Assembly (NCBI GenBank): GCA_050261575.1
Contig: JBLNDL010000078.1
Location: forward strand, 62,001 to 126,000
Length of the DNA: 64,000 nt
Source of the DNA: Sphingomonadaceae bacterium
GTDB lineage: Bacteria > Chloroflexota > UBA6077
Direction: 5' to 3'
Part shown: in pieces, positions 844 to 47,767 of the stretch
How positions within the stretch are numbered: the stretch's first letter is position 1
Layout: each line of letters begins with the position of its first letter
The notes under the pieces: model-generated
The model's input: only the letters and a program-made list of their open reading frames with translations
What the model was told of the DNA's origin: nothing
Database searches by the model: none
Position numbers and translations under genes: made by a program

Positions 844-1174
844 GCCCTGGCAGGCGGCAAGGAGGCGGTAGCGGCTTCCACGCCTGTCGAACCGGATTGC
901 GGACGATCACAGCCTGACCCGCGTGGCAAGCGAGGGATTACCAGCCTGCCGCCGAAATCCGACATCTCCTGCTTCTGAGGGCGAGGTTCTACCTCCCCTT
1001 CCTCGACGGCGGGTCCGTCGAGACCCACGGCATCACCTCGCATCCATCTCAATCGATAGCGAACATCGGCAACAACACTCGGTTCGCCTGCTGGCGCCGC
1101 CGTACATGGGTAGCGCCATGTCCCTGCGCCGCGGCACGCCGCAGTCGAGCGCCACCAGATTCTGTGCGGAGGGA

Positions 1175-12386: not shown

Positions 12387-14501
12387 TCAATACAACAGTA
12401 TCCCCACTGCGGCCGAGAGGGCGAGCAGCAGGTGGATCCCCACGTAGAACAGCAGGAAGGCGGTGCCGGCCACCACCAGCAGGGTGGACCAGTGAGCCGC
12501 CATCAGGTAGAGGCCAAACGAGGCGATCTTCTGCCGCCCTGCGTCCCTGCCACCGGTCTCCTCTACCCGCGCATGCCTGGCCAGCAGATCGACGACCCAC
12601 GAAACAGCCTTACCGGCTCCGGCTGTGCGCCGCAGCCAGCCACCGGCCGCCACATCCTCTGCCTTCACTATTGGGACCAGGCTGGCCGCTCCCAGTACGA
12701 ACCCCGCGAGAAGCCCGAGGCAGCCGGCGATCCCAACCAGGGCGGACGCCAGGCCGGCCCCCGGCAGCCCGAGCAGGGCCGCGGAGCCACCACCCACTGC
12801 CGGAGCAAGATAGCCCACGCTCCCACTGCGGGCTTCTGCCCACCAACCGACGGTGCCATCCAACGCTAGCCCGAACCCCATTCCGGCCAGCAACGTGGGC
12901 ACGATGCCCCAGAGGATGCCCGAAGCTGCCCGTCTCCACTCGCTGGGGAAATCGGGGTTTCGCCCGCAGACAACCACGTTCCCGACGATCCAGCCGGTGA
13001 GGGCACCCCAGGAGGCACCTGCCTCAATTACGCCGCCCAGAACGCCTTGGAAACCCAGGGCCACCAGCACCACCCATGCGGTAATGGCAGCGAGGCTCAG
13101 GGTCGCCAGTGCGACCACCCTGTGCCGCGACGCGAAGCGAACTGGGGCTAGCACCAGTCCGTCGCGGGCGGAAACGCTGAGGCACGAAGCGCACCCGGAC
13201 ACCGCGCCGGCCAGCACGAGTGAAGGGCCGGCAACGCCCCAGGTCCGCCACGTGCCAGCGGACGCCCCCAGCACCCCTCCGAGCACGGCCCACGAGGAAA
13301 CGACGAGCCAGAGCCTGAGCACGTCGCCGCGCGGCCCCAGCTCCCAACCATCTGCCTCGCGCCTCGGGCCCACGGCAAGGCTCCACTTCCGTCGCATCCT
13401 CCCAGCCGCTACCGGCAGGCCGACGGCCGTCACGAGGGCCAGGGCCAGCGCTACGGCGGGTAGCCCCGACAGCACCGCGACCGCGGCCAGCGACGTGCAG
13501 ATGGTCAGTCCCAGCGGAAGCAGCCATCGAGTTCTCGCGGCGTCCACCTGGGTCGGCTCTCTCCGGGGCATCCCCACGAGCGACACCTGCCGAAGCTCCC
13601 CCGCGTCTGTGCCCACCCAGAGGAAACCATCCGGGGTGCCGGCCGCTTCCCATTCCTGGCAGTCCACCTCCACGGCGATGTGAGAGGTGCCGGATGCGCG
13701 GGACAGCGGGCCGAATCGACGAGAGGCAACCCGCATCCAGGGCTCTCCCTGGAGGAATCCGGCCTCCGCCCCTCCACCCTCGTTCGACACCAGCAGGTGC
13801 AGCACCAGGGAGCGCGGCGCCCCGGCGCACTCGCACGGACGCACCACCCAATCACCCGGTTTGACCCGCAGTCGCGGGGGGTGCTCTGGTGCCACCGCCA
13901 GCGTCACCACCAGCGTCACCTCGTCGCTCCGCAGCCCCTCCGTCGGGTTCGCCAGACGCAGCTTCAACTCGGCTCGGTGGCGGTGCCGCGCCGCAAGCTT
14001 GCTGGTGTCTATGCGAACGGCAACGTGGAGCGGGAAGCCGAGTTCTCCCCCCTTCCAGTCCTTGGAGACCGAGATCCAGTTCGGCAGGTTGTGGGACAGC
14101 TCCACCGATGTTGCCCTGCCGCCCAGGTTGTGGAGGCATACTGAACTCGTCGCGTTCTCTCCTCGCCTCACCACCCCTAGATCGAGGATGCGTGGTTCGA
14201 TCTCCAGCCGGGGTGGGAGGGCTTGCGGTCGGCTAGCGGGCTCAGAAGCAGCAGGGCGCACCGCCTCGACGAGCCGCCTCCTATCGTAGTCCGCCCTCCT
14301 CGAGGGGTTCCCCAGCACCTTCCAGGCTTCGACCAACTCCGCGACACGCCGGCCCACCGCCGGATCCGATGCACCACGATGCGCGTCGGGATGAACGGCC
14401 TTGATCGACCGCCTGTAGGCCCTGCCGATGGCCTCCTGGCTGGCAGACGGGGGCACGCCCAGTACGGCGTAGTAGTCCTTGCGCTCCTCGTTGGGTTCCA
14501 C
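12387..14501 (-). CDS. DnaJ-domain membrane protein (J domain + probable Ig-like domains + multi-TM C terminus)
   Basis: DYYAVLGV..AYR..HPD..EAWKVLG.P.RRADYD; PPRLEIEP..LDLG and PPRLRVKP..LVSNEGG beta-rich repeats; long hydrophobic C-terminal half; start uncertain. Confidence 0.7.
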   Translation of the reverse strand: MEPNEERKDYYAVLGVPPSASQEAIGRAYRRSIKAVHPDAHRGASDPAVGRRVAELVEAWKVLGNPSRRADYDRRRLVEAVRPAASEPASRPQALPPRLEIEPRILDLGVVRRGENATSSVCLHNLGGRATSVELSHNLPNWISVSKDWKGGELGFPLHVAVRIDTSKLAARHRHRAELKLRLANPTEGLRSDEVTLVVTLAVAPEHPPRLRVKPGDWVVRPCECAGAPRSLVLHLLVSNEGGGAEAGFLQGEPWMRVASRRFGPLSRASGTSHIAVEVDCQEWEAAGTPDGFLWVGTDAGELRQVSLVGMPRREPTQVDAARTRWLLPLGLTICTSLAAVAVLSGLPAVALALALVTAVGLPVAAGRMRRKWSLAVGPRREADGWELGPRGDVLRLWLVVSSWAVLGGVLGASAGTWRTWGVAGPSLVLAGAVSGCASCLSVSARDGLVLAPVRFASRHRVVALATLSLAAITAWVVLVALGFQGVLGGVIEAGASWGALTGWIVGNVVVCGRNPDFPSEWRRAASGILWGIVPTLLAGMGFGLALDGTVGWWAEARSGSVGYLAPAVGGGSAALLGLPGAGLASALVGIAGCLGLLAGFVLGAASLVPIVKAEDVAAGGWLRRTAGAGKAVSWVVDLLARHARVEETGGRDAGRQKIASFGLYLMAAHWSTLLVVAGTAFLLFYVGIHLLLALSAAVGILLY

Positions 14502-14581
14502 GATTCTGCCCGATCCCACTAGAAAGCTGGGGCGCCCGGCATCCTTCCGAACCGGCTGCCGGGCGCCTCGTCGAGCGGCCT

Positions 14582-14655
14582 CCAAGCAGGTATCTCTGGC
14601 TTACGTCAGCTTTGCAGGCGGGAAGTGCATGCCCTTTCCAGAGATGCCTCCTTGG
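14582..14655 (+). repeat. 74-bp palindromic dispersed element, copy B
   Basis: CCAAGCAGGTATCTCTGG...GGCGGGAAGTG...CCAGAGATGCCTCCTTGG. Confidence 0.9.
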
Positions 14656-34553: not shown

Positions 34554-34580
34554 ATATCGGCACGTAGCGCGGGAACTTTA
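34554..34580 (-). promoter_or_regulatory. sigma-28 promoter of fliS-fliD-flaG
   Basis: TAAA-15 nt-GCCGATAT, exact SigD/FliA consensus. Confidence 0.85.
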
Positions 34581-34687: not shown

Positions 34688-35533
34688 CTACCTGAAGAGG
34701 GACAGGACGCTCTGCGGCGCGGCGTTCGCCTGGGCCAGCATCGCCGTGGCAGTCTGCTGCAGGATCTGGTACTTGGTGGCGTTCAACTGCTCGTTCGCCA
34801 TGTCCGCGTCCATGATCCGGCTGTAGGCCGCCTCCGTGTTCACCTTGGCGATGGTCACCGTCTCCTCGCGGAAGTTCAACCGGGACACCGCGGCGCCGAT
34901 GTACTGCAGTTTCGCAGAGACACTCTGGATGGCACTGCTCAGGGAGTCGATCGCAGCCTGGGCGCCACCAGCACTCGAGACGGTGAGGGCGTCCACGCCG
35001 AGGTCGCCGGAACTCGCCGACCCGAATGAAGCACCGGTAAGCGTGATCTGGTCGTTCGAGTCGTTGTCGGCACCGGTCTGCAGTACTATGTCGCCGACCG
35101 AGCTGTTGAGCAACGCCGCGTCGTTCCACTTGGTGCTTCCGACGATGTTGTCGATCTCAGCCGTGAACTGGTCGAGCTGGGCCTGAATGGCAGTCCGCTC
35201 CTCTGTCCCCAAGGTGTCTGACGCCGCCTGGACGGCCTTGTCGCGCATGATCATCAGGATGTCGTTGATCTTCTGCAGGCCACCCTCGGCAACCGCCAGC
35301 ATGTTCTTGGCGTCACCGATGTTGTTGAGAGCCTGCCCCAGTCCGCTGGCCCGGAACTGGAACTTGGTGGCAATGGTCAAGCCAGCCGGGTCATCCGCCG
35401 CCGAGTTGATCTGCTTGCCCGTGGCCAGGCGCAACTGCGCCACCCCGAGCCTGTTCTGAACCGCCTTCAACGAGTTCAGTGCGTTCAGGGCCCCGATGTT
35501 GGTGTTGATCCTCGTGTAATCACCCTGTGCCAT
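34688..35533 (-). CDS. fliC: Flagellin (281 aa, minimal variable region)
   Basis: RINTN, RLATGKQINSAADDPAG, AEGGL, SRIMDADMA, AQAN..PQSVLSL. Confidence 0.97.
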   Translation of the reverse strand: MAQGDYTRINTNIGALNALNSLKAVQNRLGVAQLRLATGKQINSAADDPAGLTIATKFQFRASGLGQALNNIGDAKNMLAVAEGGLQKINDILMIMRDKAVQAASDTLGTEERTAIQAQLDQFTAEIDNIVGSTKWNDAALLNSSVGDIVLQTGADNDSNDQITLTGASFGSASSGDLGVDALTVSSAGGAQAAIDSLSSAIQSVSAKLQYIGAAVSRLNFREETVTIAKVNTEAAYSRIMDADMANEQLNATKYQILQQTATAMLAQANAAPQSVLSLFR

Positions 35534-35578
35534 CCTGCTTCCTCCTTGTCACTTTCGCCCTGCGGGCGATTCCTCTTC

Positions 35579-35596
35579 CCGCGAGTCCCTTCGCGG
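35579..35596 (-). promoter_or_regulatory. Putative CsrA-binding hairpin in the flagellin leader
   Basis: mRNA CCGCGA-AGGGAC-UCGCGG with ANGGAN hexaloop; further GGA motifs overlap the RBS. Confidence 0.65.
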
Positions 35597-35656
35597 TGTG
35601 GCGCACCGCTGGGCCGCGCTGCCCTCACGAGGCTTCCTCCGGTCGCCACACTCATG

Positions 35657-35684
35657 TATTCGGCAGGGGGAGCGCAAAACTTTA
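35657..35684 (-). promoter_or_regulatory. sigma-28 promoter of flagellin
   Basis: TAAA-16 nt-GCCGAATA. Confidence 0.8.
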
Positions 35685-35850
35685 GGGGACCTCCGGCAGA
35701 CTCCAGACAGACCGGGCGATCTCACAGGATGGATCCTTCGGCCACCTCCCCTTCACCCCCAACTGCCCCTCGCCTGGAGGGCAGCGCGGACTGGGTGAGG
35801 GATCGGCCGTCGGTTCGTCAGGGAAGAATAGGAGAAATGCGCGTCAGAAT

Positions 35851-35894
35851 TAGGGCGTTTCCCTATATGGACCCCGGAGGTCCCGACCTACGAT
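35851..35894 (+). promoter_or_regulatory. Putative activator-dependent promoter of the glycosylation island
   Basis: TAGGG-CGTTT-CCCTA at 35851-35865, -10 TACGAT at 35889-35894. Confidence 0.5.
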
Positions 35895-36117
35895 CCCGGA
35901 GGCGCAACCCGTCGTCGGTCTCCGCAGGGGCATTCCCCACGGCACGCACACTTGCCGAAGTCGACGTGCAGCCAGCAGGCGGAATGCGAATTCCGCCCCA
36001 GCGCTGCAGTTCATCGCGACGCACTCGCGACAGCGTGGCCATGAGGTTGCCGTGGCAGACGGTACTCGCCACTGGACCGACCTTGTGGTCGCCGCGATGG
36101 AGGAGGGCTCAGACATA

Positions 36118-39100
36118 ATGGTTAGCAGATCCAGGTGCGAGTCCAACCGGTGGCTACGCAGGCACGCCGCCGAGATCACGGGAAAAGTGCTTTCCCTGGG
36201 CAGCGGCGACGATTCCGACGGCCAGGGCAGGAAGTACAGGGACTACTTTACCCGCTGCTCGTCCTACACCACATCGGAGGTGTCGGCCGAGTTCGGTTGC
36301 GATCTGGTGTTGGACGTCCGAAGCATGCCCGAAGTCGCTACCGCCTCGTACGACTGCGTCTTCTGCAGCGGTGTCCTCGAGCATGTGGATGATTTCCAGG
36401 CCGCATTGCAGGAGATCACACGGATCCTCAAGCCAGGCGGCACCCTGCTGCTGGGGGTACCCTTCCGGCAGGGCATCCACCTCGCTCCACAGGACTTCTG
36501 GCGCTTCACCGAGTTCGGCTTGCGTCTCCTTCTCGAGCAGCGCGGCTACACCGTGAACGAACTGGTGGCACTCGATGACGTTGCTGAGAATGGCTTCCCC
36601 GCAACCTACTGGGCTAGAGCTACGAAGCAGCCAGGAGCCAGCGGGTCCCACACCGGCTACGCGATCGTAAACACCTTCTTCAACCAGCGGGACGTCGACG
36701 CGGATCCAGGCACCGTCCAGTCTCTGCGCGCCTTCGACCCAGGATTGGCGGCTCTCATAGACCAGAAGGAAATCAAGAGCATTCGCCATTGGGAATACTC
36801 GGTGCTTCTCAACGCCTTCGGCCACGACTTCCGCAACAAGACGGTGTTGGACGTGGGCTGCGGTCGATCTCTGTTCTCGATGTATCTCGCCAGCCTGGGA
36901 GCTGAGGTGACCACTTTCGACCTACCCAGTCCATTGCAGCGCCAGGACGAGGCCATAGCCAAGAGGCGACGAGCTGGTATCAGGCACATGCAGGGAGACA
37001 TGCTCGACCTGCCCTTCGAGCCAGAGTCCTTCGACCTCGTGATCTGCATTTCAGTCATCGAGCACCTTCAAGAAAACCCTGGAAACCCACTCAATCCCCG
37101 ACCGCGCGACGCCTTCTTGGCAGACACCGAGAAGGCCGTGGCCGAGATGGCCCGAGTGGTCAAGCGAGGCGGCTACCTGTACCTTACCAGCGACGTCTAC
37201 GATCCATCTCGCCAAAAGGATGATGGTTGGCGCCCAGGGACAGGAGTCACGTGCTGCTACACGGAATCCGAATTCAAGGAGGTGATCCTCGAGACAGCTC
37301 AGAGGCAAGGTCTCTCCTTCGATCGCGCACAGGACTACGACTTCAAGAGGATCATCGAAGACCCCGCCAGATGCACGTATCGCGGGCGATACGTCTCCAC
37401 CTTCGCGATGCTCATGAAACGAACTGAGGCCTCGCGGCACCAAACCGCCTATGCGCACACTCGATTGCCGGAATCCAACGGGTTTCCTGGCGGGGCCCTG
37501 GTAGCCAACGTTCTGGGCCACCGCATGGAGCTAGATTCGCGAGACTCGCTGGCGCTTGCCGCCAACGGGGTCTACGAACCTCTGGAGACCGCCCTCTTCA
37601 TGGCAATAGTGAAGCGAGGGGACGTGGTGATCGATATCGGAGCGAATATCGGCTACTACACCCTTCAGTTCGCGCGCCTCGTTGGCGATGAGGGTAAGGT
37701 CTTCGCCTTCGAACCGGATCCGACCAATTTCGCGACGTTGAAGCGAAACGTCGAGGCCAACGGTTACCGGAACGTAGTACTGATTCAGAAGGCTTGTTCG
37801 AGCGAAGCAGGACGGTTGAAGCTCTTCCTGTCGGACGACAACAAGGGGGACCACAGGCTTTACGACTCCGGCGACGGCCGTTCCTACGTGGAGGTCGACG
37901 TCGTCCGCATAGACGACTACTTCGAGCACTACACGGGGAAGGTCAACCTCATAAAGATGGACATCCAGGGGGCCGAGTACGGTGCCCTCTCAGGGATGAC
38001 CAACCTCATCGAGAGGAATCCTGACCTTGTGCTGGTTACCGAGTTCTGGCCTCTCGGGTTCAAGCGATCCGGCGTGTCGGCATCCGACTTCGTAGCCCTT
38101 CTCCAGAAGCTCGGGTTCAACATCCTGCACATCAACGACGTGCGCAACACGATCGAGCAAGTCCCCATGCAGCAGATCTTCCACTGGTTCACGGAGGAGC
38201 TGGGCAATCACACCAACCTCTTGTGCTGGAAGGGTGCCATGCCCAAGCCGGAACCGCTGCCGAGGGAAGAGCTTCTGAGGATTCTTGGCGGGCATTCGGG
38301 CAGCAACTGCCCGGCAGCCCCACCGGTCGCCGCACACGAGACCGGCAGCGCAGTCTCTCCGCGGGCTCAGGCTCGAGCCCCAAGACCTGGCGATCCGTCG
38401 GTTCACATCGTCATAGCGGACGAGGGCTGGATCCTCGAAAGGTGTGCGCGCGAGTTGGAGGCTCGCCTCCCCTACGTGACGGTCGGAAAGGAGCCGGACC
38501 CGAAGGCCAACTTGAACTATTACGTCAACTACTCCTGCTGCCAGGGGGCAAAAAGGGGCAAGGAGGCTGCGCTATTCACGCACGTAGAGGAGCTATCCCC
38601 GCCAGCAGCCCTCCGGTTCTTCGACGTCGCCCGCAGGGTCGACCACAGGGTCTGCATGTCGGAGGTGTATGCCGACCGGCTGAAGAAGGCAGGGCTGGAT
38701 AGCGTCTCGGTGATCACACCGGGGGTAGACCTGGACGCCTACGCGCCGAAGGTGCGGATCGGCGTCGTCGGTCGCACCTACCACACGGGCCGCAAGGGCG
38801 AAGACCTGGTGCGGCAGGTGATGGACGTTCCCGGCATAGAGTGGCATTTCACAGGAGAGGGTTGGCCGGGTCCTGCCAAGCACTACGCCGCTGACGAGAT
38901 GCCAGCGTTCTACAACTCGGTCGACTACATCCTGGTCCCCTCCTACTACGAGGGCGGTCCCATGTGCGTGCTGGAAGCTTTGGCGTGCGGCAAGGAGGTG
39001 ATCGCGCCTCCCGTCGGGTTCGTCCCCGACTACCCCCACATCGAATTCCGGACGGGTGACGCCTCGGACCTCCGCCGCGTGCTCAGAGAGTTGGTGGCGA

Positions 39101-42100
39101 AGAGGGATGCCCTTCGCCAGTCCGTGCTGCACCGTACGTGGGACGCCTGGGCGGAGGAGCACGATCGGCTGTTCAGAGGAATCCTCGCCCTGGAGAAACC
39201 CGCGGCGGCCTCCGAGCCCTCCGCTCCCGAAACAGTCGTGCAGGTCCACTCGGCCGTTAGGACTTCGGGCGGGAATGGGAGATGCCTGCGGGTTCTACTG
39301 GCTAGCCACTCGCCCGAGAACCGCGCGCGTGGCGGTCCCACCATCCGCCTCAGGAAGACCGCGGAGGCGCTACGAGCGCTTGGCGTCCAAGTAGACGTCA
39401 CTGGAGACGATCTCCCGGACGCAGCAGGCTACGACCTGGTCCACTCGTTCAACGTGTGGGAGCCAGCGGCGGCGCTCGCCCAGCTCCGCCATCTGAAGCG
39501 ATTCGGTGTGCCCGTCGTCTTCTCTCCGATCTATCTGGACCTGTCAGAGACCCTGTGGGCTTACCACGCAATCCCCCAGGTTTTCAAGGAGGCTCGCGGC
39601 TCTAAGCGGCTCGACGAGTTCCTGAAAGCCATGGCAGACGGGACCCTGCTGGTCGGAGGAAAGCCCAGAGAGTGCCGCCGCGAGTTCGTACCCGGCTACT
39701 TCAGCGCCCTCGAGAGTATGGCCGGCCTCGCCGACCACCTGATCGCACTCGGCAACCGCGAGATGGAACGGCTGTGGGAGGCTGGTGTACCGAGACGCGC
39801 TTACAGCCTTGTCCGCAACGGCACCGACTACGCCCGCTTCTCGGGGGCATCTGGCGATGCCTTCGAAGCCCGCTACGGGGTGAAGGATTACGTCCTCTGC
39901 GTCGGGCGCCTGGAGGTCCGAAAGAACCAGCTCATGCTGGCAATGGCCCTTAGCGGAACCGGAATCCCCCTCGTGCTGATCGGCCAGCCGGCAGAGCAGG
40001 AGTACGTGGAACTGATCCGCCGCCACGGCGAGAACGTCATCTTCATCGATCACCTGCCCCACGATAGCGACCTGCTCGCCTCGGCGTACGCCGGGGCAGG
40101 CGCATTCTGCCTGCCCAGTTGGGTGGAGGGTGCACCGTTGACGGCGCTGGAAGCCGCGGCCGCAGGCACGCCGCTGGTTCTCAGCGACCGGGCCTGCGAG
40201 CAAGAGTACTTCGGGGATCTCGCCAGGTACGTCGATCCGGCGAGCGTCGACTCCATCCGGGAGGCGGTTCTGGCTGCATGTCGCGGTGCTGACGGCCCGG
40301 GTCGACGGGAAGCGCTGAGGGGGCTGGTGAGGGAACGGTACACCTGGGAGCACACCGCACGGCAGACCTTGGCAGCTTACGAGAAGGCTCTCGCGGGCCG
40401 GCGGGAGGCGGCGTTTCCGGCACCTGCCGCCACAACGCCCCCCTGTCGGCACGACGTGCGAACGAGGGGGCGCGATGCGAATGCACTCGACGCCCCGCTT
40501 GCGGGCGCCATCCCCGACGGCACGAGCGTCGCTCCGCCCGTTCTGTGGTTCGCCCCGGTGTTCGATCCGAGCGGCTACTCCGACGAGGCGCGCGGCTTCG
40601 TCCTTTCCCTGCCCGGTGAGGGCATCGAGCCCGCTCTCAGGGCCATTGCCCGCCACTCGCCCGTCTTCAAGACGCAGCTCGCCCCCGAGATCCGGCGCGC
40701 GCTGGACGCGGCCCTGGCCCGCACCGTCCAGAGGGATGGCATCGCCGTCATCCACGCGCCCGGGTCGGCCTTCCAGAGGGTCCGTGGCGCGGCGTACATG
40801 GTCGGCCGGACCATGTTCGAGACCGACGGGCTGCCTCCAGAGTGGGTGGCCAGGTGCAACGAGATGGACGAGATCTGGGTGCCCACCGGCTTCAACCTCG
40901 AGACCTTCCGGCGAGCCGGGGTCACGGCCAAGCTAGTCAAGGTGCCCAGCGGCATCGACACGGCACGGTTCAGGCCGGGGCTGGCGCCGCTGCCTACTCA
41001 TGGGGCTCGGGGCACGGTGTTCCTCTCGATCTTCGAGTGGATCTACCGCAAGGGTTGGGACGTGCTGCTGCGGGCGTGGGCGAGGGCCTTCGGCCCGACC
41101 GACGACGTCACCCTGCTGCTGCGGACCTACCCTGCAAACACGACCGAAGGAGAGGGGATCACCAAGGAAATCCAGGACCGAATCGACCGCTTCCTTCTCG
41201 CAGAGCTGGGGTTGCGCCGAGATCAGGTGGCTCCGATCATCGTGCTAGGGGAGCAAGTACCCGAAGAAGACATGCCTCGTCTCTTCGCAGCGGCTACGGC
41301 GTACGTCGCCCCGTCGCGCGGCGAAGGATGGGGACGTCCGCACCTCCAGGCCATGTCGTGCGGCCTTCCGGTCATCGCCACTCGCTGGAGTGGCAACCTG
41401 GAGTTCATGAACGACGACAACAGCCTCCTCCTCGACGTCGAGGGGCTGGTACCCATCGACGAACGGGCCGAGTTCCAGTTCTATCGAGGGCAAAGGTGGG
41501 CAGAACCGTCGGTAGAACACCTGGCAGCTCTGATGCGCCGAGTCGTCGAGCGCCCGGATGAGATGGCGCGCATCGGTCGGAGGGCACGCGCGGACGTCGA
41601 GGAGCAATGGGGTTGGAGAAGGGTCGCGGCGATCGCGGCCGATCGCTTGAGGGCAATCCACTCCGAACTGAACGGTGGCAGGACAACAGTCGGCAGAACC
41701 CAGGCGCCACCATTCGCGGTGCGATGGGAAGGCTCTCAGTTCGTCCACCACTCGTTGGCCCATGTCAACCGCGAGCTTTGCCTCCAACTGATCGATGCCG
41801 GCAACGACCTGGCCATCGTGCCCTACGAGCCGGATCAATTCGGCGCGGAGGCCGACGAGCGGTTCCCGAAGCTTGCCGCTCGGCACAACGCGCGGCTCTC
41901 CCGCCCGGTCGACATCCACGTGCGGCACCAATGGCCCCCCAGCTTCGATCCTCCCAGGGAGGGCCACTGGGTGATGATCCAGCCCTGGGAGTTCGGCAGC
42001 CTGCCCAAGGAGTGGATCGAGAAGATGAGGGCCCAGGTGGATGAGGTTTGGGCCTACACCAGCTTCGTCAGGAACAGCTATATCGAGAGCGGCATGCCTG

Positions 42101-44115
42101 CCGACCGGGTCCATGTGGTCCCCTTGGGAGTGGATGTGGCTCGGTTCAACCCGTCCGCGCGACCCTCGAAGCTCGCTACCTCGAAGACGTTCAAGTTCCT
42201 CTTCGTCGGCGGCACCATCCACCGCAAGGGACCCGACATCCTCTTGGATGCCTACGTGAACAGCTTCTCCGCCCAAGACGACGTCTGCCTGGTCATCAAG
42301 GACATGGGCGGCAAGAGCTTCTACCGGGGCCAGACCGCGGAGAAAACCATCCGTGCCCTACAGGCCAGACCGGACGCCCCGGAAATCCTCTACCTGACGG
42401 ACGACATCCCTGACTCGGATATGCCCGGCCTGTACACCGCCTGCGACTGCTTGGTCCACCCCTACCGTGGTGAGGGCTTCGGCCTGCCCATCGCCGAGGC
42501 GATGGCCTGCGGTCTGCCGGTAATAGTCACAGGGGCCGGCGCCTGCCTCGACTTCTGCGACGACACGGTGGCGTATCTCATTCCCGCCGAGAAGCGGTAC
42601 CTCTCCAGGGCGCGGATCGACCACTGGGAGACGGCAGGCAGACCCTACCTGTACGAGCCCAGTGCGGCGGCCACCGCGCGCCTGATGAGGCACGTCTTCG
42701 AGAACCGGGAAGAGGCGCGATCCGTCGGCCTGCGCGCTCGACAGCGGATCACCGATCGGTTCTCCTGGCGGCACGCGGCCGAGCGAGCGATGGAGAGGAT
42801 GCGCGAACTCTCCAACAGGCCGATCCTTCGCTTCCAGCAACCGGCTGCCCGTCCGATCGTTGGCCTGGTCGTTCAGCAGGGAGTAGATGTTTCTCGCCTA
42901 TCGAGGTCTCTGGCGGACACCGTCTCCAATCCGGCTCACCTCATCATCGCCAACGCCTCCGATCGACGTGCCCTCGCGGGGACCGATTTCGACCTGCCAC
43001 CGGGATGGAGCTTGCAGCCCTCCGAGAAGTCGGCGACCGCGCTCCTCAACGAGGTCCTGCAGGCACCGGGAGACGATCCAGTCCTGCTGCTCTCGGGCGA
43101 CCTCGTCTTCACCTCCGGCTGGCTGGAGCCGCTGCTCGGGGCCATAGAGAGGGATTCCGGCGCGGCCGTAGTCGGGCCGGTCTCCAACCGCGCCCCCAAG
43201 CCCCAGCGCGTCGGCGTCAAGTACGAGGGCACCGGCAAGGAGCTCCGCCGCTTCGCCGCCCGGCGCGCCCTGGCGCACCGCGGCCGGAGTGAGGAGGTTC
43301 CCTACCTGGGAGCCTTCTGTCTGTTCTTCAACCGGCGGTTATGCCGGCAGATCGGCCCGCTGAGGGAGGATCTGGATCTCCCCCTGGCGATCTGGGAGTT
43401 CTTCGGCCGGCTGAAGCAGGCGGGGCACCGCATCCTGCTCGCCCTCGACAGCTTCGTCCACCACGAGAAGCTCACGGAAGACGAGGGTGCCCGCTTCGAT
43501 GATCTGGCCGAGACCGAGGCGGAGATGGACCGGACGCTCAGCGAGGGGCAGGCCGCACTTCAGGCCGGCCAGGTCGACCGAGCGATCGAGGAGTTCACGC
43601 GGGTCACCGAGCAGTACCCCGACTGGGCAGCCGGCCACATGGCCCTGGCATCCGCCCTCATGGTCCGGGAGGACTTCGCCGGTGCCGTTCCGGTCCTCCG
43701 GCGCGCAGCCGATCTGGCGCCGCAATCCGGAGCGATCCAGAACCTGCTGGGCATCGCACTCTTCCGAAAGCAGGAGATCCAGGAGGCAGAGGCAGCCTTC
43801 CGACGAGCCCAGCAGTCCGATCCCGAGGACGTGGAGCCGCCGCTCAACCTCATCGAGCTCTACCGGTCACAAGGGAGATACGAAGAAGCCACTCAGACCC
43901 TGAAGGAGGCCCTCGCCGCCAACCGCGACCACCCGGACCTCCTGGCGACCTTGGCCACCCTCAGCCTGGAGTTGGGGGACCTGGAGGGCGCGGAGCTGGG
44001 GCTGGAGCGACTCGCCGCCGTCGCGCCCGATCATCCGGAGGCCGGCCTCATCCGGGAGGCCATCGACGGGATGCGCGCCACGCAACCCTCGAATGGAACG
44101 GAGGTGTCTCAGTGA
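36118..44115 (+). CDS. Giant multidomain methyltransferase/glycosyltransferase (3 SAM MTases, 4 GT4, degenerate GT2, TPR)
   Basis: VLSLGSG, VLDVGCG and FkbM-type DIGANIG..KMDIQGAE; four GT4 signatures EGGPMCVLE, EGAPLTALE, EGWGRPHLQ, EGFGLPIAE; VGPVSN..FVHH GT2-like; C-terminal TPRs; ATG 36118 behind GGAGG. Confidence 0.9.
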   Translation: MVSRSRCESNRWLRRHAAEITGKVLSLGSGDDSDGQGRKYRDYFTRCSSYTTSEVSAEFGCDLVLDVRSMPEVATASYDCVFCSGVLEHVDDFQAALQEITRILKPGGTLLLGVPFRQGIHLAPQDFWRFTEFGLRLLLEQRGYTVNELVALDDVAENGFPATYWARATKQPGASGSHTGYAIVNTFFNQRDVDADPGTVQSLRAFDPGLAALIDQKEIKSIRHWEYSVLLNAFGHDFRNKTVLDVGCGRSLFSMYLASLGAEVTTFDLPSPLQRQDEAIAKRRRAGIRHMQGDMLDLPFEPESFDLVICISVIEHLQENPGNPLNPRPRDAFLADTEKAVAEMARVVKRGGYLYLTSDVYDPSRQKDDGWRPGTGVTCCYTESEFKEVILETAQRQGLSFDRAQDYDFKRIIEDPARCTYRGRYVSTFAMLMKRTEASRHQTAYAHTRLPESNGFPGGALVANVLGHRMELDSRDSLALAANGVYEPLETALFMAIVKRGDVVIDIGANIGYYTLQFARLVGDEGKVFAFEPDPTNFATLKRNVEANGYRNVVLIQKACSSEAGRLKLFLSDDNKGDHRLYDSGDGRSYVEVDVVRIDDYFEHYTGKVNLIKMDIQGAEYGALSGMTNLIERNPDLVLVTEFWPLGFKRSGVSASDFVALLQKLGFNILHINDVRNTIEQVPMQQIFHWFTEELGNHTNLLCWKGAMPKPEPLPREELLRILGGHSGSNCPAAPPVAAHETGSAVSPRAQARAPRPGDPSVHIVIADEGWILERCARELEARLPYVTVGKEPDPKANLNYYVNYSCCQGAKRGKEAALFTHVEELSPPAALRFFDVARRVDHRVCMSEVYADRLKKAGLDSVSVITPGVDLDAYAPKVRIGVVGRTYHTGRKGEDLVRQVMDVPGIEWHFTGEGWPGPAKHYAADEMPAFYNSVDYILVPSYYEGGPMCVLEALACGKEVIAPPVGFVPDYPHIEFRTGDASDLRRVLRELVAKRDALRQSVLHRTWDAWAEEHDRLFRGILALEKPAAASEPSAPETVVQVHSAVRTSGGNGRCLRVLLASHSPENRARGGPTIRLRKTAEALRALGVQVDVTGDDLPDAAGYDLVHSFNVWEPAAALAQLRHLKRFGVPVVFSPIYLDLSETLWAYHAIPQVFKEARGSKRLDEFLKAMADGTLLVGGKPRECRREFVPGYFSALESMAGLADHLIALGNREMERLWEAGVPRRAYSLVRNGTDYARFSGASGDAFEARYGVKDYVLCVGRLEVRKNQLMLAMALSGTGIPLVLIGQPAEQEYVELIRRHGENVIFIDHLPHDSDLLASAYAGAGAFCLPSWVEGAPLTALEAAAAGTPLVLSDRACEQEYFGDLARYVDPASVDSIREAVLAACRGADGPGRREALRGLVRERYTWEHTARQTLAAYEKALAGRREAAFPAPAATTPPCRHDVRTRGRDANALDAPLAGAIPDGTSVAPPVLWFAPVFDPSGYSDEARGFVLSLPGEGIEPALRAIARHSPVFKTQLAPEIRRALDAALARTVQRDGIAVIHAPGSAFQRVRGAAYMVGRTMFETDGLPPEWVARCNEMDEIWVPTGFNLETFRRAGVTAKLVKVPSGIDTARFRPGLAPLPTHGARGTVFLSIFEWIYRKGWDVLLRAWARAFGPTDDVTLLLRTYPANTTEGEGITKEIQDRIDRFLLAELGLRRDQVAPIIVLGEQVPEEDMPRLFAAATAYVAPSRGEGWGRPHLQAMSCGLPVIATRWSGNLEFMNDDNSLLLDVEGLVPIDERAEFQFYRGQRWAEPSVEHLAALMRRVVERPDEMARIGRRARADVEEQWGWRRVAAIAADRLRAIHSELNGGRTTVGRTQAPPFAVRWEGSQFVHHSLAHVNRELCLQLIDAGNDLAIVPYEPDQFGAEADERFPKLAARHNARLSRPVDIHVRHQWPPSFDPPREGHWVMIQPWEFGSLPKEWIEKMRAQVDEVWAYTSFVRNSYIESGMPADRVHVVPLGVDVARFNPSARPSKLATSKTFKFLFVGGTIHRKGPDILLDAYVNSFSAQDDVCLVIKDMGGKSFYRGQTAEKTIRALQARPDAPEILYLTDDIPDSDMPGLYTACDCLVHPYRGEGFGLPIAEAMACGLPVIVTGAGACLDFCDDTVAYLIPAEKRYLSRARIDHWETAGRPYLYEPSAAATARLMRHVFENREEARSVGLRARQRITDRFSWRHAAERAMERMRELSNRPILRFQQPAARPIVGLVVQQGVDVSRLSRSLADTVSNPAHLIIANASDRRALAGTDFDLPPGWSLQPSEKSATALLNEVLQAPGDDPVLLLSGDLVFTSGWLEPLLGAIERDSGAAVVGPVSNRAPKPQRVGVKYEGTGKELRRFAARRALAHRGRSEEVPYLGAFCLFFNRRLCRQIGPLREDLDLPLAIWEFFGRLKQAGHRILLALDSFVHHEKLTEDEGARFDDLAETEAEMDRTLSEGQAALQAGQVDRAIEEFTRVTEQYPDWAAGHMALASALMVREDFAGAVPVLRRAADLAPQSGAIQNLLGIALFRKQEIQEAEAAFRRAQQSDPEDVEPPLNLIELYRSQGRYEEATQTLKEALAANRDHPDLLATLATLSLELGDLEGAELGLERLAAVAPDHPEAGLIREAIDGMRATQPSNGTEVSQ

Positions 44116-45896
44116 AACGAGCAGGCCGCGCCCGTGATGTCGGGCGGCGGGAGAGGAAGCTCCACACGGCCGCAACGAGCCTCGCAGTGCGGGAGCCCAT
44201 CTCCAGCCGGCCGGGCGACGCCCTCGAAGGCGTAGGGCGGGAGCTTGCCCCCCACCGCCGGGAGGGCCAGGATGCACGGCATCCCCAGAACAGGCAGTTC
44301 GAGGCCTTCGAGGTCACGCTGGAGGCCAGGGAGATCCCCCGATGGCCCTCCATCTCCCTGTGTATGATAGTCAAGAACGAGGAGGCCAACCTCCGCCCCT
44401 GCATCGAATCGGCTTGCGACCTGGCATCGGAGATCATCGTCGTCGACACCGGCTCCGCCGACGACACTGTGCGTGTTGCGCGCGAGATGGGCGCGCGCGT
44501 CTTCGACTTCGCCTGGACCAACGACTTCGCCGCTGCGCGTAACGAGTCGATCCGCCACGCCACCGGCGAGTGGATCTTCTGGATGGACGCCGATGACCGT
44601 CTCACCCCAAAGGCAGTCTCACAGCTCAAGTGTGCGGCGGCAAGCGGAAAGGCTGACGCCTTCCTCTGCCTCGTCTCCAGCAGGACGGCCGCCGGCTCGC
44701 GCGACGTCACGGAGCACGTGCGGCTTTTCAGGAACGGCATAGGCATCACCTTCAGCCAATCCATCCACGAGACAGTCTACCCCGCCCTGGTCCGGCTGGG
44801 GCTGCGGCTCGCCATCACCGACATCGCCATCGAGCACACCGGCTACGAGTCGCCGGATGCAAAGCGGACAAAGGCCGCCCGGAACCTGGCTATCCTCGAT
44901 GCCCAACTGGAACGGCACCCCGACGACCCCACCCTCGTCTTCTACCGAGGCCAATCCCGTGGTATGGTGGGCGACGCCGCGGGCTCCGTAGCCGACCTGC
45001 AGCGCTACCTGGAGCTAACCCAGCCGGACGTACGCTTCAACTTCATGCGCTTCTGGGCCCATGCCTCGCTCCTCCGCTTCCGGGAGATCAAGGAGGACAG
45101 GGAACGCCACGGCGCCCTGCTGGAGTCCGCGCTCGCGGAGTTCCCGGGCCACCCCAACTTCCTCTTGGAGCGGGCTTCACTGCAGATGGCCGACGGCCAT
45201 CTGGAGGGTGCCCTGCGCGACCTGGAACGGGCCCACAAGGCGCTCCAGGGGACGGTGCGGGGTCTGGCCCCTTCGCTGTCCCAGGTGGAGATCCGACTCT
45301 CGGACTGCTGCCGCCAGTTGGGGAGGGCGAACGAGGCTATCCAGTGGGCAGAGCGGGCGTGGCAGCGCTCCCCTGCCGACGAGGGGATCGGCCTCGCACT
45401 CGCACGGATCTACCTGGAAAAGGGACGACTGAGGGAAGCGGAAACGACGCTGGATCGGCTGCCACCGACGGCCGACTCGGCGGATCGGTGGCTTCTGGTT
45501 GCGGAGCTGCGGCTGCGCCAGGGTCGTCCCGACGAGGCAGAGAAGGCGATGCAGGCAGCCGAGGCAAGGGGACTGCCCGCGGAGCAAGCCGCCCAGACGG
45601 CGCAGCGGCTCCAGGCGGCACGACTGCTGGCCGCCACTCGCACCCATCCGGTGGCGCAGGAGGCGCCGCAGGTGGGGTCGCAGTTGCGAGGGCTGGCCCT
45701 GTTGGGCCAGGGGCGGGAGATGGAGGCTGCGGAGCTTTTCGCCTCGGCCATCCAGGAGGCCCCCTCTGACCCAGACAACTACCGCTACCTGGCGGTGGCG
45801 CTCCAGAAGCTGGGCCGAGAGGCGGAGGCCCAGGAGGCGTGGAGGCTGGGGCTGATCTGGCAGCAGCGCGCCGCATCCCGCGCCGCCAGGAGGTAG
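44112..45896 (+). CDS. GT2 glycosyltransferase with TPR repeats (flagellin glycosyltransferase-like)
   Basis: SLCMIVKNEE, VDTGS.DDT, DFAAARN, WMDADD, IHE, HTGY; TPRs; true start may be downstream. Confidence 0.88.
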   Translation: MKRAGRARDVGRRERKLHTAATSLAVREPISSRPGDALEGVGRELAPHRREGQDARHPQNRQFEAFEVTLEAREIPRWPSISLCMIVKNEEANLRPCIESACDLASEIIVVDTGSADDTVRVAREMGARVFDFAWTNDFAAARNESIRHATGEWIFWMDADDRLTPKAVSQLKCAAASGKADAFLCLVSSRTAAGSRDVTEHVRLFRNGIGITFSQSIHETVYPALVRLGLRLAITDIAIEHTGYESPDAKRTKAARNLAILDAQLERHPDDPTLVFYRGQSRGMVGDAAGSVADLQRYLELTQPDVRFNFMRFWAHASLLRFREIKEDRERHGALLESALAEFPGHPNFLLERASLQMADGHLEGALRDLERAHKALQGTVRGLAPSLSQVEIRLSDCCRQLGRANEAIQWAERAWQRSPADEGIGLALARIYLEKGRLREAETTLDRLPPTADSADRWLLVAELRLRQGRPDEAEKAMQAAEARGLPAEQAAQTAQRLQAARLLAATRTHPVAQEAPQVGSQLRGLALLGQGREMEAAELFASAIQEAPSDPDNYRYLAVALQKLGREAEAQEAWRLGLIWQQRAASRAARR

Positions 45897-45902
45897 AGCC
45901 GC

Positions 45903-46946
45903 ATGTCCGCTTCCCGGGCCCCATCCCCGACCGTCTCCCTCTGCATGATCGTGAAGAACGAGGAGCGTTGGCTGGCCAGTTGCCTGGAGAGCGTACGAGG
46001 GGTGGTGGACGAGATGGTGGTGGTGGACACCGGGTCCAACGATGCCACCCTCGAGATCGCGCGCTCTTTCGGCGCCAGGGTCTTCTCCCATCGCTGGCAA
46101 GGCGACTTCGCGGTTGCTCGAAACGAGTCGCTCCTCCACGCCACCGGGGATTGGGCACTGGTCCTGGACGCCGACGAGGAGCTGGAACGCGGCGCTGGCA
46201 CGCTGCTCCGGGGGCTGATCGACCGGCCGGAGGTAGAAGGGTACCAGGTGAGAGTGAGGAGTCTGCTCCCCGCCGGGGACCTGCTCTGCCACGAGGACAT
46301 TCACCTCACCAGGCTCTTTCGGCGCCGTCCTCAGTATCGCTACGAGCAAGCCATACACGAGCAGATTCGTCCCGCCATCGAGCGGCAGGGCGGCCTGGTG
46401 GTGGAGACCAGCGAGATCACCATCGTTCACCACGGCTACGCCCAGCCGATCGCTCAGGGCGGTGAACGCAGGGCAGTCCGAAACCTGGGGTTGCTAGAGG
46501 CGGCCGTTTCCCGATCCCCCGGCGACCCCTACCTCTGGTACCAACTGGGCGCGACCTACAAGTCGCTGGGCGACAACGAGAAGGCCGAGCAGGCCCTGCG
46601 CGCCGTCCTGGGGATGGACTGGGAGGGCCTCGGAAGCGGGCTGGTCGACAAGCTACACCAGAAGCTGGCGCAACTGGCACTGGGTAGGCAGGATTACCCT
46701 GCGGCTCTTCGCCACGCTCGAGAGAGCCTCGCGCGGAACCCGGAGAACCTGGCCTCGATGTACGTGGCAGGGCTCGCCTGCATCTTCCAGCACGACCTCC
46801 ACGGGGGGTACGACTACTTCGCGCGCCTCCGCGCCAAAGGGGCAGGCAACCTGGTGGACACCGCAGACCTGGATCGAGTTCTGGCATTCTGCCGGGAGCG
46901 CCTGGGGCTCCGCCGCCAACCCGATAGTGAAGCTGGCGAGAGCTAG
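45903..46946 (+). CDS. GT2 glycosyltransferase with TPR repeats
   Basis: SLCMIVKNEE, VDTGSND, LDADE, IHEQ, HHGY; TPRs. Confidence 0.9.
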   Translation: MSASRAPSPTVSLCMIVKNEERWLASCLESVRGVVDEMVVVDTGSNDATLEIARSFGARVFSHRWQGDFAVARNESLLHATGDWALVLDADEELERGAGTLLRGLIDRPEVEGYQVRVRSLLPAGDLLCHEDIHLTRLFRRRPQYRYEQAIHEQIRPAIERQGGLVVETSEITIVHHGYAQPIAQGGERRAVRNLGLLEAAVSRSPGDPYLWYQLGATYKSLGDNEKAEQALRAVLGMDWEGLGSGLVDKLHQKLAQLALGRQDYPAALRHARESLARNPENLASMYVAGLACIFQHDLHGGYDYFARLRAKGAGNLVDTADLDRVLAFCRERLGLRRQPDSEAGES

Positions 46947-46960
46947 AGATACCTGCCTAG
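46920..46960 (-). repeat. Half copy of the 74-bp element (copy E), overlapping the GT2 stop codon
   Basis: Reverse complement CTAGGCAGGTATCTCTAGCTCTCGCCAGCTTCACT matches the first ~40 nt of copy C. Confidence 0.7.
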
Positions 46961-47003
46961 CTCCCGCGAGGGCACCAAGACTGCGGACGCGAAACCGTGA
47001 AGC

Positions 47004-47246
47004 TCAGCCTCCGGCTCTGCGGACACGGAGGCTGCCGGCCAGCCGGAGCGGCAGCTTCGCCTGGGTTCCCGCGGCCAGCCGGTTCTCCCGCTCCACCTCG
47101 TCCCGCAACTCCTTGCGCAGCACTTGGACGTCGCGGGGCGCCTGGATACCCAGGCGCACGTGATCGCCGCTCACATCCAGGACCGTGAGCTCGATATCGC
47201 CGCCGATGTTGATAGCCTCCCCGCTGCGCCGAGTGAGGATCAGCAT
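47004..47246 (-). CDS. csrA: Carbon storage regulator / translational repressor
   Basis: MLILTRR.GE.I.IG, VRLGIQAP..V.V.RKE..EN (FliW-regulated type with C-terminal extension). Confidence 0.95.
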   Translation of the reverse strand: MLILTRRSGEAINIGGDIELTVLDVSGDHVRLGIQAPRDVQVLRKELRDEVERENRLAAGTQAKLPLRLAGSLRVRRAGG

Positions 47247-47767
47247 CTGACCACCTCGCGAGCGGCGCTAGGCCCCGCGACACGACCCTCTTGGCCGGCC
47301 TCGTGCGCCTCGCCACCCGCCAGGACGATGCGCCCATCTTCGGTGACGGACAGGGGGTGGTGGACCGAGTAGCAGCTCCGCTGGGGGATCAATTGAGCGC
47401 CCAGCCGCCTGGCCGGGTTGAGTGCCACCGGAGCCCTCAGGTTAGCGCCCGCCGGAACGCCTTCCGGCGACAGGGTCACTACGCACAGCAACTCAGGGCG
47501 CTCCCCGCGCTTGAGCTCCAACAGATCCCTATCGTCGCGAGCCAGTTGCGCCTCGTACCCCGGCTTCAGCAAGAGAGGATCCACGAGGACGAAACCAACC
47601 TCAGGGTCGTCCACGGACTGGAGCAGGAAGAGGGGAAGCTCCAGATGGAAGAGGGCGTATCGGGTGAACTCTTCGAAGCCCACCATCCCCCTTGGAAACT
47701 CCAGCAAGTCCTCCTCCGGGACCTCGACTCGCTCCTCGCTCTCCCCCAGGACGACTGTCACCTGCAT
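47240..47767 (-). CDS. fliW: Flagellar assembly factor, CsrA antagonist
   Basis: FPRGMVGFE, LQS.DDP..F...DP, ANLRAP..N. Confidence 0.92.
   Translation of the reverse strand: MQVTVVLGESEERVEVPEEDLLEFPRGMVGFEEFTRYALFHLELPLFLLQSVDDPEVGFVLVDPLLLKPGYEAQLARDDRDLLELKRGERPELLCVVTLSPEGVPAGANLRAPVALNPARRLGAQLIPQRSCYSVHHPLSVTEDGRIVLAGGEAHEAGQEGRVAGPSAAREVVRC

Follow-up and report, generated by a model that had tools for sequence, protein, structure and literature searches.

A 2665-residue fusion of glycosyltransferase and methyltransferase modules encoded beside flagellin in a Chloroflexota genome, a probable multi-enzyme of flagellin glycosylation

Why would a bacterium encode, right next to its flagellin gene, a single protein of 2665 residues in which methyltransferases, glycosyltransferases (GTs) and tetratricopeptide repeats (TPRs) are strung together? 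The question is raised by a stretch of 64,000 nucleotides (hereafter, the window) from contig JBLNDL010000078.1 of GenBank assembly GCA_050261575.1 (positions 62,001 to 126,000 of the forward strand), deposited as a Sphingomonadaceae bacterium and placed in the Chloroflexota by GTDB. The genome that holds the window comprises 3.7 Mb in 103 contigs. The protein, called here the giant protein, is encoded at 36118..44115 on the plus strand, and an earlier note on the window had read it as an assembly line that extends and methyl-caps a flagellin glycan. Our analysis indicates that it probably works in the cytoplasm as a soluble multi-enzyme, as part of a flagellin glycosylation island. This reading starts from what is seen directly: the open reading frame (ORF) with its domains, the operon and flagellar locus in which it lies, and its conservation in relatives.

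The giant reading frame and its modules

The giant ORF runs without interruption from an ATG at 36118, which has a GGAGG about 10 nt upstream, to a stop codon at 44113-44115. The longest frame opens at a GTG at 36052 and adds 22 residues; the resulting 2687-aa form is the one held in a public protein collection (entry P0003). The named best protein matches are from Chloroflexota, Caldilineae and Anaerolineae.

The earlier note had described one uninterrupted ORF and called for a check of its continuity, an assembly fusion being the concern. Contigs (not raw reads) from the Logan assemblies of four public runs, three of them from one study, were placed on 36000-44200. Run X1, which is possibly the source of the window DNA, covers the interval with a single 29,082-nt contig having 4 substitutions and no gaps. 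Run X4, from the same study and not flagged as the source, covers 36000-42777 with a single contig (6 substitutions, no gaps), and two further pieces reach 44200. Fragments of run X5, from a different study, lie over the giant ORF free of gaps. No insertions, deletions or joints across 36000-44200 are listed in the run contigs, and the 7 variant sites in the ORF, namely 5 synonymous changes, D294N and S1279R, create no stops. Thus, the giant reading frame is intact across independent assemblies, since contigs of other runs cross it without indels or stop-making variants, and the ORF is continuous as first described. The guanine-plus-cytosine (GC) content within it ranges from 0.587 (37-38 kb, the methyltransferase part) to 0.701 (40-41 kb, around the junction of the modules Gb and Gc described below), which suggests a mosaic of modules of differing origin.

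Pfam was run on the whole protein and on nine pieces of it, and NCBIfam on the whole protein, all with curated cut-offs. The protein opens with three methyltransferase modules. M1 (36170..36630, plus strand; aa ~18-171) is a class I S-adenosylmethionine (SAM)-dependent methyltransferase that matches the C-terminal half of the profile only (Methyltransf_11, aa 63-111, E 2.2e-12; Methyltransf_23, aa 66-146), while the glycine motif I, ‘LGSG’, is readable in the sequence. M2 (36780..37420, plus strand; aa ~221-435) belongs to the same class (Methyltransf_11, aa 244-356, E 1.5e-20) and has ‘VGCG’ as motif I. The third module, Fk (37500..38230, plus strand; aa ~461-705), is of the FkbM family, according to both PF05050 (aa 506-667, 87.7 vs. 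22.7 bits) and TIGR01444 (124.6 bits vs. a cut-off of 37.7).

Four GT4-type modules of the GT-B fold follow on the same strand, namely: Ga (38400..39190; aa ~761-1025; match ~833-1015), Gb (39290..40390; aa ~1058-1425; match 1102-1386), Gc (40540..41670; aa ~1475-1851; match 1634-1824) and Gd (41720..42810; aa ~1868-2231; match 1920-2159). Their Glycos_transf_1 / Glyco_trans_1_4 scores are 36.5, 61.3, 57.9 and 71.3 bits, respectively, and all lie above cut-off. The matches of the compact Ga module are weak yet above threshold (PF13692, 36.5 bits vs. a cut-off of 27; PF00534, 33.7 bits), and a module 60% identical to it is found in a related locus, L051. The EX7E motif, which is typical of GT4 enzymes and lies in their C-terminal Rossmann domain, is intact in three of the four modules (Ga, 945-953; Gb, 1337-1345; Gd, 2119-2127), while Gc has E..Q instead (EGWGRPHLQ, 1736-1744). 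The same Q is common to the orthologous modules of three related loci (L015, L016 and L023), and thus it looks like a tolerated variant of the lineage that has been conserved, rather than a sign of decay.

The C-terminal end consists of a divergent GT-A-fold domain, A (42835..43512, plus strand; aa 2240-2465), and a TPR array, T (43540..44043, plus strand; aa ~2475-2642), the latter matched both in Pfam and by TPR and O-GlcNAc transferase (OGT) chains in the PDB. The sequence between all modules is a short Pro/Ala-rich linker; such linkers are readable at ~aa 705-760, 1026-1057 and 1427-1474, and a composition script flagged 724-748. The hydropathy profile contains no N-terminal hydrophobic stretch, signal peptide or membrane segment, its 19-residue peak (1.67) lying within a GT4 core, and the giant protein is predicted to be soluble. 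A PDB sequence search with the whole protein returned generic GT4, methyltransferase and TPR chains only, none of them close. The domain list of the earlier note is confirmed by Pfam for the two class I methyltransferases, the FkbM module, the four GT4 modules and the C-terminal TPRs; its module boundaries are accurate to a few tens of residues, and its Pro/Ala linkers and lack of a signal peptide or membrane segment agree with the sequence reading and the hydropathy profile.

For the remaining module, which had been called GT2-like, the GT-A fold stands and the assignment by Pfam does not. The PF00535 match (aa 2308-2411) reaches 18.5 bits, under the cut-off of 23.3, and the AlphaFold model of aa 2240-2465 (predicted local distance difference test, pLDDT, 86.2; predicted TM-score, pTM, 0.85) retrieves GT-A glycosyltransferases in Foldseek. 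The best match is 8v9q_A (E 2.5e-9; query TM-score, TMq, 0.65), within a top group of ppGalNAc-transferases, WrtF and the Pyrobaculum mannosyltransferase PcManGT (E ~1e-9 to 1e-7, TMq 0.57-0.65). We aligned the domain with 11 homologous segments cut from related loci. It has SGD at the DxD position, the final D being kept in 10 of the 12 aligned sequences, and the strand that normally binds the nucleotide is missing in 4 of the homologues. The domain may be non-catalytic, and a binding or scaffolding role is plausible.

The operon and its flagellar surroundings

The stop codon of the giant gene overlaps, as GTGA, the GTG start of a second gene (44112..45896, plus strand), and a third gene (45903..46946, plus strand) begins 6 nt after the second; both downstream genes have Shine-Dalgarno sequences. 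From the overlap and the 6-nt gap, the three genes are predicted to form an operon in which the giant gene comes first. The second gene encodes a GT2-TPR protein of 594 aa of the GmaR/SunS type, a candidate flagellin-priming O-glycosyltransferase, whose GT2 domain matches GmaR (22ao_A, E 6.9e-29) and SunS (7msp_A, E 1.2e-20). The third encodes a GT2-TPR protein of 347 aa that is a paralogue of the 594-aa one (42% identity over 216 aa). The priming of a glycan would most obviously fall to these two genes. We considered whether the GT-A-like and TPR end of the giant protein is a degenerate copy of these neighbours, and rejected it: BLASTP detects TPR-level similarity only (E 0.001 and 0.07).

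Pfam analysis of the window ORFs identifies ~14.6-59 kb as a flagellar and chemotaxis regulon. On the minus strand, divergent from the giant gene, are fliC, fliS, fliD, flaG, cheA, cheC, cheD and cheB; past the three plus-strand GT genes, the minus strand carries fliW, flgL, flgK, flgN and flgM. The GT trio is thus flanked by late flagellar genes, with fliC-fliS-fliD-flaG on one side and fliW-flgL-flgK-flgN-flgM on the other. fliC (34688..35533, minus strand) encodes a short flagellin, 281 aa long and rich in Ser/Thr in its central stretch, which is the presumed acceptor. It is separated from the giant gene by 584 nt and lies on the opposite strand, which bears out the divergent arrangement reported earlier. 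A 190-aa ORF in between (35546-36118) has no Pfam match and an Arg/Pro-rich translation that looks non-coding, and was treated as spacer. No lipid-carrier priming transferase, flippase, ATP-binding cassette (ABC) exporter (Wzm/Wzt) or oligosaccharyltransferase was found among the window ORFs scanned. Judged from sequence, both the gene positions and the protein-directed GTs are those of a flagellin glycosylation island.

A promoter scan with the sigma-28 consensus gave 3 matches in the window, vs. 0.36 expected. One lies upstream of fliC (35660..35684, minus strand; TAAA, 16 nt, GCCGA, then ATA), and another upstream of fliS (34555-34580, minus strand; TAAA, 14-16 nt, GCCGA). The pattern also occurs inside the giant ORF, within the FkbM module (37952-37976, plus strand), where it is probably due to chance, although it could be an internal promoter. 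No sigma-70-like sites were found in 35400-36300 and 43900-47400.

Two other proteins encoded in the window can be mentioned here. Upstream of the flagellar region, 923-5323 (plus strand) encodes a protein of 1466 aa with a pyrroloquinoline quinone (PQQ)-like beta-propeller, a GH26 domain and another glycoside-hydrolase domain. Adjoining the flagellar rod and hook genes, 12387-14585 (minus strand) encodes a protein of 732 aa whose sole Pfam match is an N-terminal DnaJ domain.

Relatives of the giant protein and their islands

In order to place the giant protein among its relatives, we searched within its own phylum, across phyla and by protein size. The phylum sample consisted of 401 evenly drawn Chloroflexota genomes, in which the GT4-GT4 core (Gc-Gd) was sought at E<=1e-60 and flagellin as PF00669. 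The core was found in 20 genomes and flagellin in 53. Core matches of at least 45% identity occur in six genomes (G000, G005, G039, G064, G321 and G075, the last an unpublished genome), and all six have flagellin. In four of them (G000, G005, G039 and G064), the core lies no more than 12 kb from a flagellin-family gene on the same contig; the matches in G321 and G075 are on short contigs.

The cross-phylum scan used one genome per species, and flanking genes were identified by phmmer at E<=1e-5. At least one of fliC, fliD, fliS, flgK, flgL, fliW, flaG, flgN and flgM is present in the fetched flanks of 20 of 61 related loci (15/34 loci of at least 18 kb, and 5/27 shorter ones). By reasoning rather than by a computed control, late flagellar genes would be expected in at most ~1% of random 20-30 kb stretches. 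The flagellar-linked loci are from Chloroflexota, Syntrophales and other Desulfobacterota, Latescibacterota, Gemmatimonadota, Ignavibacteria, Terriglobia, Actinomycetota and Geobacterales.

The third search was restricted to proteins of 1465-4664 aa (E<=1e-3), of which the 8000 best candidates were scored. At least 335 proteins of this size class match the giant protein, typically over 26-54% of the query, which is the Gc-Gd region. Among the 120 matches listed, many join methyltransferase, GT4, GT2 and TPR modules, with sizes up to 4637 aa. Furthermore, flagellin-linked open frames of up to 3590 aa (Anaerolineaceae bacterium BD1) were found, together with others of 2987 aa and 2886 aa. The rarity that the earlier note implied is thus not borne out, since uncharacterised proteins of similar or greater size number in the hundreds. 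The Gc-Gd core also stands alone at ~780 aa: 976 matches were obtained at E<=1e-20 among proteins of 444-1414 aa. Its carriers include Desulfacinum infernum, D. hydrothermale and Motilibacter rhizosphaerae, and the proteins are all named just ‘glycosyltransferase’.

The relatives follow a common module syntax, [Gc]n-Gd-(A)-(T), in which at least one Gc-type module precedes a Gd-type module wherever both occur, and in many cases the GT-A-like domain and/or TPRs come after Gd. Examples are Fk-Gc-Gd-T in L016, Gc-Gd-T in L017, Gc-Gc-Gd...A in L023 and ...Gc-Gc-Gd-A-T-T in L047. Departures from a simple string are seen in L019, which repeats the Gc-Gd pair, and in L067, which has extra Gc- and Gd-type matches around the pair. 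Gd is the most widely conserved module, with 45-75% identity to most relatives from many phyla and 32-42% in a few loci. The N-terminal modules M1, M2, Fk, Ga and Gb vary freely, and the best match of both Ga (60%) and Gb (39%) is a Hyphomicrobiales contig.

According to Pfam, the islands of G005, G039 and G064 are constant in position and varied in content. The G005 island encodes an aminotransferase, a separate methyltransferase of 277 aa, a GT4-GT2 protein, a triple-GT4 protein (1304 aa) and a GT2-TPR protein. The G039 island has a GT2-TPR protein, a GT2-GT4-GT4-TPR protein of 1304 aa, a rhamnosyl O-methyltransferase, a C-methyltransferase and nucleotide-sugar genes, while the G064 island has three GT2-TPR proteins, a protein of 1774 aa (four GT2 and one GT4 with TPRs), a sulfotransferase and sulfate-activation genes. 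Activities predicted for the modules of the giant protein are thus encoded by separate genes in the islands of its relatives.

In G064 (loci L011/L012, G064:C52:1-30000), genes for the sulfotransferase, an adenosine 5′-phosphosulfate (APS) kinase, a member of the 3′-phosphoadenosine 5′-phosphosulfate (PAPS)-reductase family and a CysN-like GTPase lie between flagellin and flgK, which hints at a sulfated flagellin glycan. In G039 (L010, G039:C3:5463-10721), the rhamnosyl O-methyltransferase (RMNT_CmcI) adjoins fliS and fliC together with a sugar C-methyltransferase, a nucleotidyltransferase and two epimerase/dehydratase genes, in what looks like a methylated deoxyhexose pathway for flagellin. 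The flagellins themselves were compared in an alignment of the window fliC product with 11 flagellins of related loci, all adjoining GT islands. These flagellins are short, with aligned high-scoring segment pairs (HSPs) of ~269-285 residues and 37-52% identity across phyla, and have no large outer domains. It should be noted that the filter used (HSPs of at least 250 residues) left out longer flagellins beside other islands, such as one of 512 aa in G064.

Flagellin glycosylation and competing explanations

Extension and methylation of a flagellin glycan is the best reading of the giant protein because of its locus, its GmaR-type operon partners, the relatives that adjoin flagellin, and the presence of the same activities as separate genes in relatives. 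The two GmaR/SunS-type GT2-TPR enzymes of the operon would place the first sugar or sugars on Ser/Thr residues of the short flagellin, before it is exported via the flagellar type III system. The four GT4 modules would then extend this primer with nucleotide sugars made elsewhere in the genome, and the three SAM-dependent methyltransferase modules would O-methylate sugars of the chain, possibly as an end cap. The C-terminal TPR array, perhaps together with the GT-A-like domain, would tether the giant protein to flagellin or to the priming enzymes, and fusion in one polypeptide would keep the activities together at a fixed stoichiometry. In this scheme, we infer which acceptor and donors are used and in what order the steps run, as well as the capping and the docking; methyl-capping is proposed by analogy with WsaE and WbdD, and docking on flagellin by analogy with FlmG. 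A complex prediction for the TPR block and flagellin scored 0.06, with the mark at 0.32, and has no bearing either way.

Parts of this scheme resemble known systems. GmaR of Listeria monocytogenes transfers N-acetylglucosamine (GlcNAc) to flagellin (PMC9638930). The two downstream genes share the GT2 domain family of GmaR (PDB 22ao) and SunS, followed by TPRs, and their position beside flagellin. The giant protein itself falls outside that family: its catalytic modules are GT4, its GT-A-like domain has no significant similarity to the two neighbours, and no anti-repressor domain is seen. FlmG of Caulobacter crescentus, which needs its TPR domain, and no more than this domain, to bind flagellins (PMC7591256), is like the giant protein cytoplasmic and joins a TPR block to a GT-B domain, a likeness of layout. 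However, FlmG has 596 residues, a single GT and N-terminal TPRs, and transfers pseudaminic acid, whereas the giant protein has four GT4 modules, three methyltransferases and C-terminal TPRs.

By analogy, the closest functional counterparts would be WsaE and, from Klebsiella and Escherichia coli, ORF6-O7, WbbB and WbdA-WbdD, iterative polymerases with one module per linkage and a terminator (PMC11231755, PMC2943079). WsaE of Geobacillus stearothermophilus and ORF6-O7 of Klebsiella are soluble and, like the giant protein, combine an N-terminal methyltransferase with several GTs, the methyl group capping the chain (PMC2943079, PMC11231755). The enzymes of this group make undecaprenyl-linked glycans for ABC export with 3-4 catalytic modules, often with a coiled-coil ruler. 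In contrast, the giant protein has 7-8 catalytic modules, a presumed protein acceptor and no match to their PDB chains, and neither a transporter gene nor one for lipid priming lies near it; the likeness is one of architecture only. The flagellin glycosylation islands of Geobacillus include FkbM and SAM methyltransferases (PMC5109656), and those of Geobacillus, Pseudomonas, Aeromonas and Clostridium, like this locus, have a variable set of GT2/GT4 and FkbM/SAM methyltransferase genes among flagellin and late flagellar genes (PMC5109656). In the available passages, the methyltransferases and 19 glycosyltransferases of the Geobacillus islands are named as separate genes (PMC5109656), whereas here they are mostly fused in 2665 aa and the host is a Chloroflexota.

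The flagellin-glycan part of the earlier proposal is thus strengthened by the locus context, the operon partners and the flagellin-adjoining relatives. Its other part, a colinear process resembling that of a polyketide synthase (PKS) or nonribosomal peptide synthetase (NRPS), is not. No carrier, thiolation-type or tethering domain was found in the Pfam scans of the whole protein and its nine pieces, and the characterised multi-GT enzymes work iteratively with terminators. The comparison of module order among relatives, which had been suggested as a check, lends no support to colinearity, the [Gc]n-Gd-(A)-(T) part alone being common while the N-terminal modules vary. Nothing indicates that domain order dictates sugar order.

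Several observations weigh against the favoured reading. No nucleotide-sugar genes were found in the GT island by Pfam on the window ORFs; RmlC and many dehydratase/epimerase genes are present elsewhere in the genome, without pointing to particular donors. Upstream of the giant gene, the promoter scans gave no sigma-28-like and no sigma-70-like site. Acidic residues are absent from the invariant or 90%-conserved columns of the 12-sequence alignment of the GT-A-like domain. In the phylum sample, 14 weaker matches (37-43% identity, confined to the first core module) come without exception from genomes that have no flagellin match; because of these homologues, the family of the first core module is not flagellum-specific. 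Finally, 41 of the 61 related loci in the cross-phylum scan, including 19/34 of the long ones, have no flagellar gene in their flanks. As judged from these flanks, the link between the core and flagellar genes is strong, with 20/61 loci against at most ~1% expected, yet not exclusive.

These related modules outside flagellar loci and in genomes without a flagellin match would also be expected if the three GT genes made an envelope, surface-layer (S-layer) or exopolysaccharide glycan unrelated to flagellin, as a mere island inserted in a flagellar locus. The GC range within the giant ORF, with the mosaic and mobile origin it suggests, and the lack of a recognisable flagellar-type promoter upstream of the gene point the same way. 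However, the polyprenyl-phosphate priming transferase, flippase, ABC exporter and oligosaccharyltransferase of such a pathway are all missing among the window ORFs scanned, the proteins of the GT operon are all three predicted to be soluble, and the operon partners are GmaR-type protein glycosyltransferases. Moreover, islands likewise set between flagellin and flgK/flgL/fliW are found in Chloroflexota, Desulfobacterota, Latescibacterota, Gemmatimonadota, Ignavibacteria, Terriglobia and Actinomycetota. We consider an envelope glycan very unlikely. A still more improbable explanation is that the giant protein glycosylates another exported flagellar protein, such as the cap protein FliD, FlgK/FlgL of the hook junction or the hook, instead of or besides flagellin, or that it moonlights as a regulator through its TPRs like GmaR. 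In several loci, fliD, flgK and flgL are as near to the islands as fliC, and GmaR acts as an anti-repressor as well as an enzyme (PMC9638930), but the TPR block of the giant protein is short (~170 aa) and the Pfam scans contain no GmaR-type anti-repressor domain.

The explanation closest to the favoured one is a polymerase and terminator in a single polypeptide, in which at least two GT4 modules repeatedly grow a polysaccharide on flagellin without a lipid carrier and a methyl cap ends the chain, as in WsaE or WbdA/WbdD. This is a special case of flagellin glycan extension, with a polymer in place of a defined oligosaccharide, and we regard it as unlikely. N-terminal methyltransferases followed by C-terminal GTs are the layout of WsaE and of Klebsiella pneumoniae ORF6-O7 (PMC2943079, PMC11231755). 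The Gc-Gd pair has a fixed order and also occurs alone at ~780 aa, and relatives have tandem copies of Gc, as polymerase modules might; with a flagellin of only 281 aa, a long glycan could form the filament surface. On the other hand, the Pfam scans, made without a coiled-coil predictor, show neither a coiled-coil ruler nor an ABC transporter or carbohydrate-binding module, and the WbdD and WbbB chains are not among the PDB sequence matches at E<=1e-3. Three different methyltransferases and four dissimilar GT4 modules fit a heterogeneous, multiply methylated oligosaccharide at least equally well. A more specific version of the same idea, which we hold to be decidedly unlikely, is a carrier-free, protein-primed polysaccharide synthase. 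Here, Gc-Gd would polymerise a repeat on a short flagellin that lacks the outer domains D2/D3, the methyltransferases would cap it to set its length, and the GT-A-like domain and TPRs would recognise the acceptor. If this were true, many kinds of environmental bacteria would have filaments whose surface is a glycan coat and not protein domains.

Under the favoured reading, that of a multi-enzyme extending and methylating a flagellin glycan, what is already known are the GT2/GT4 and FkbM/SAM islands (PMC5109656) and the TPR-bearing flagellin glycosyltransferases; what is new is the degree of fusion and the host phylum. Our literature search, with most subscription journals outside its reach, found no paper on giant fused flagellar glycosyltransferases or on flagellin glycosylation in Chloroflexota, which agrees with the earlier statement that no characterised enzyme has so many modules. 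The textbook view is unchanged by these results. Work on flagellin glycosylation has dealt almost exclusively with pathogens, which use small, separate enzymes, while environmental bacteria of many phyla appear to pack whole glycan pathways in single proteins of 2000-3600 residues beside flagellin. Their fixed core, made of two GT4 modules and in many cases continued by the GT-A-like domain and TPRs, together with freely exchanged accessory modules, would amount to a natural experiment in modular glycan synthesis. If they could be moved to a heterologous host, such fused enzymes might serve as compact tools for protein glyco-engineering. The prediction is testable in Desulfacinum hydrothermale DSM 13146, a cultured carrier of the core.

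A cultured member of the Chloroflexota, Thermomicrobium roseum, offers a further observation. Its flagellin gene, trd_A0208, is ~11 genes from the cap and chaperone genes trd_A0220 and trd_A0221 (PMC2615216). The available passages of that paper are silent on a flagellin glycosylation island, and the gap between trd_A0208 and trd_A0220 might be a site for one.

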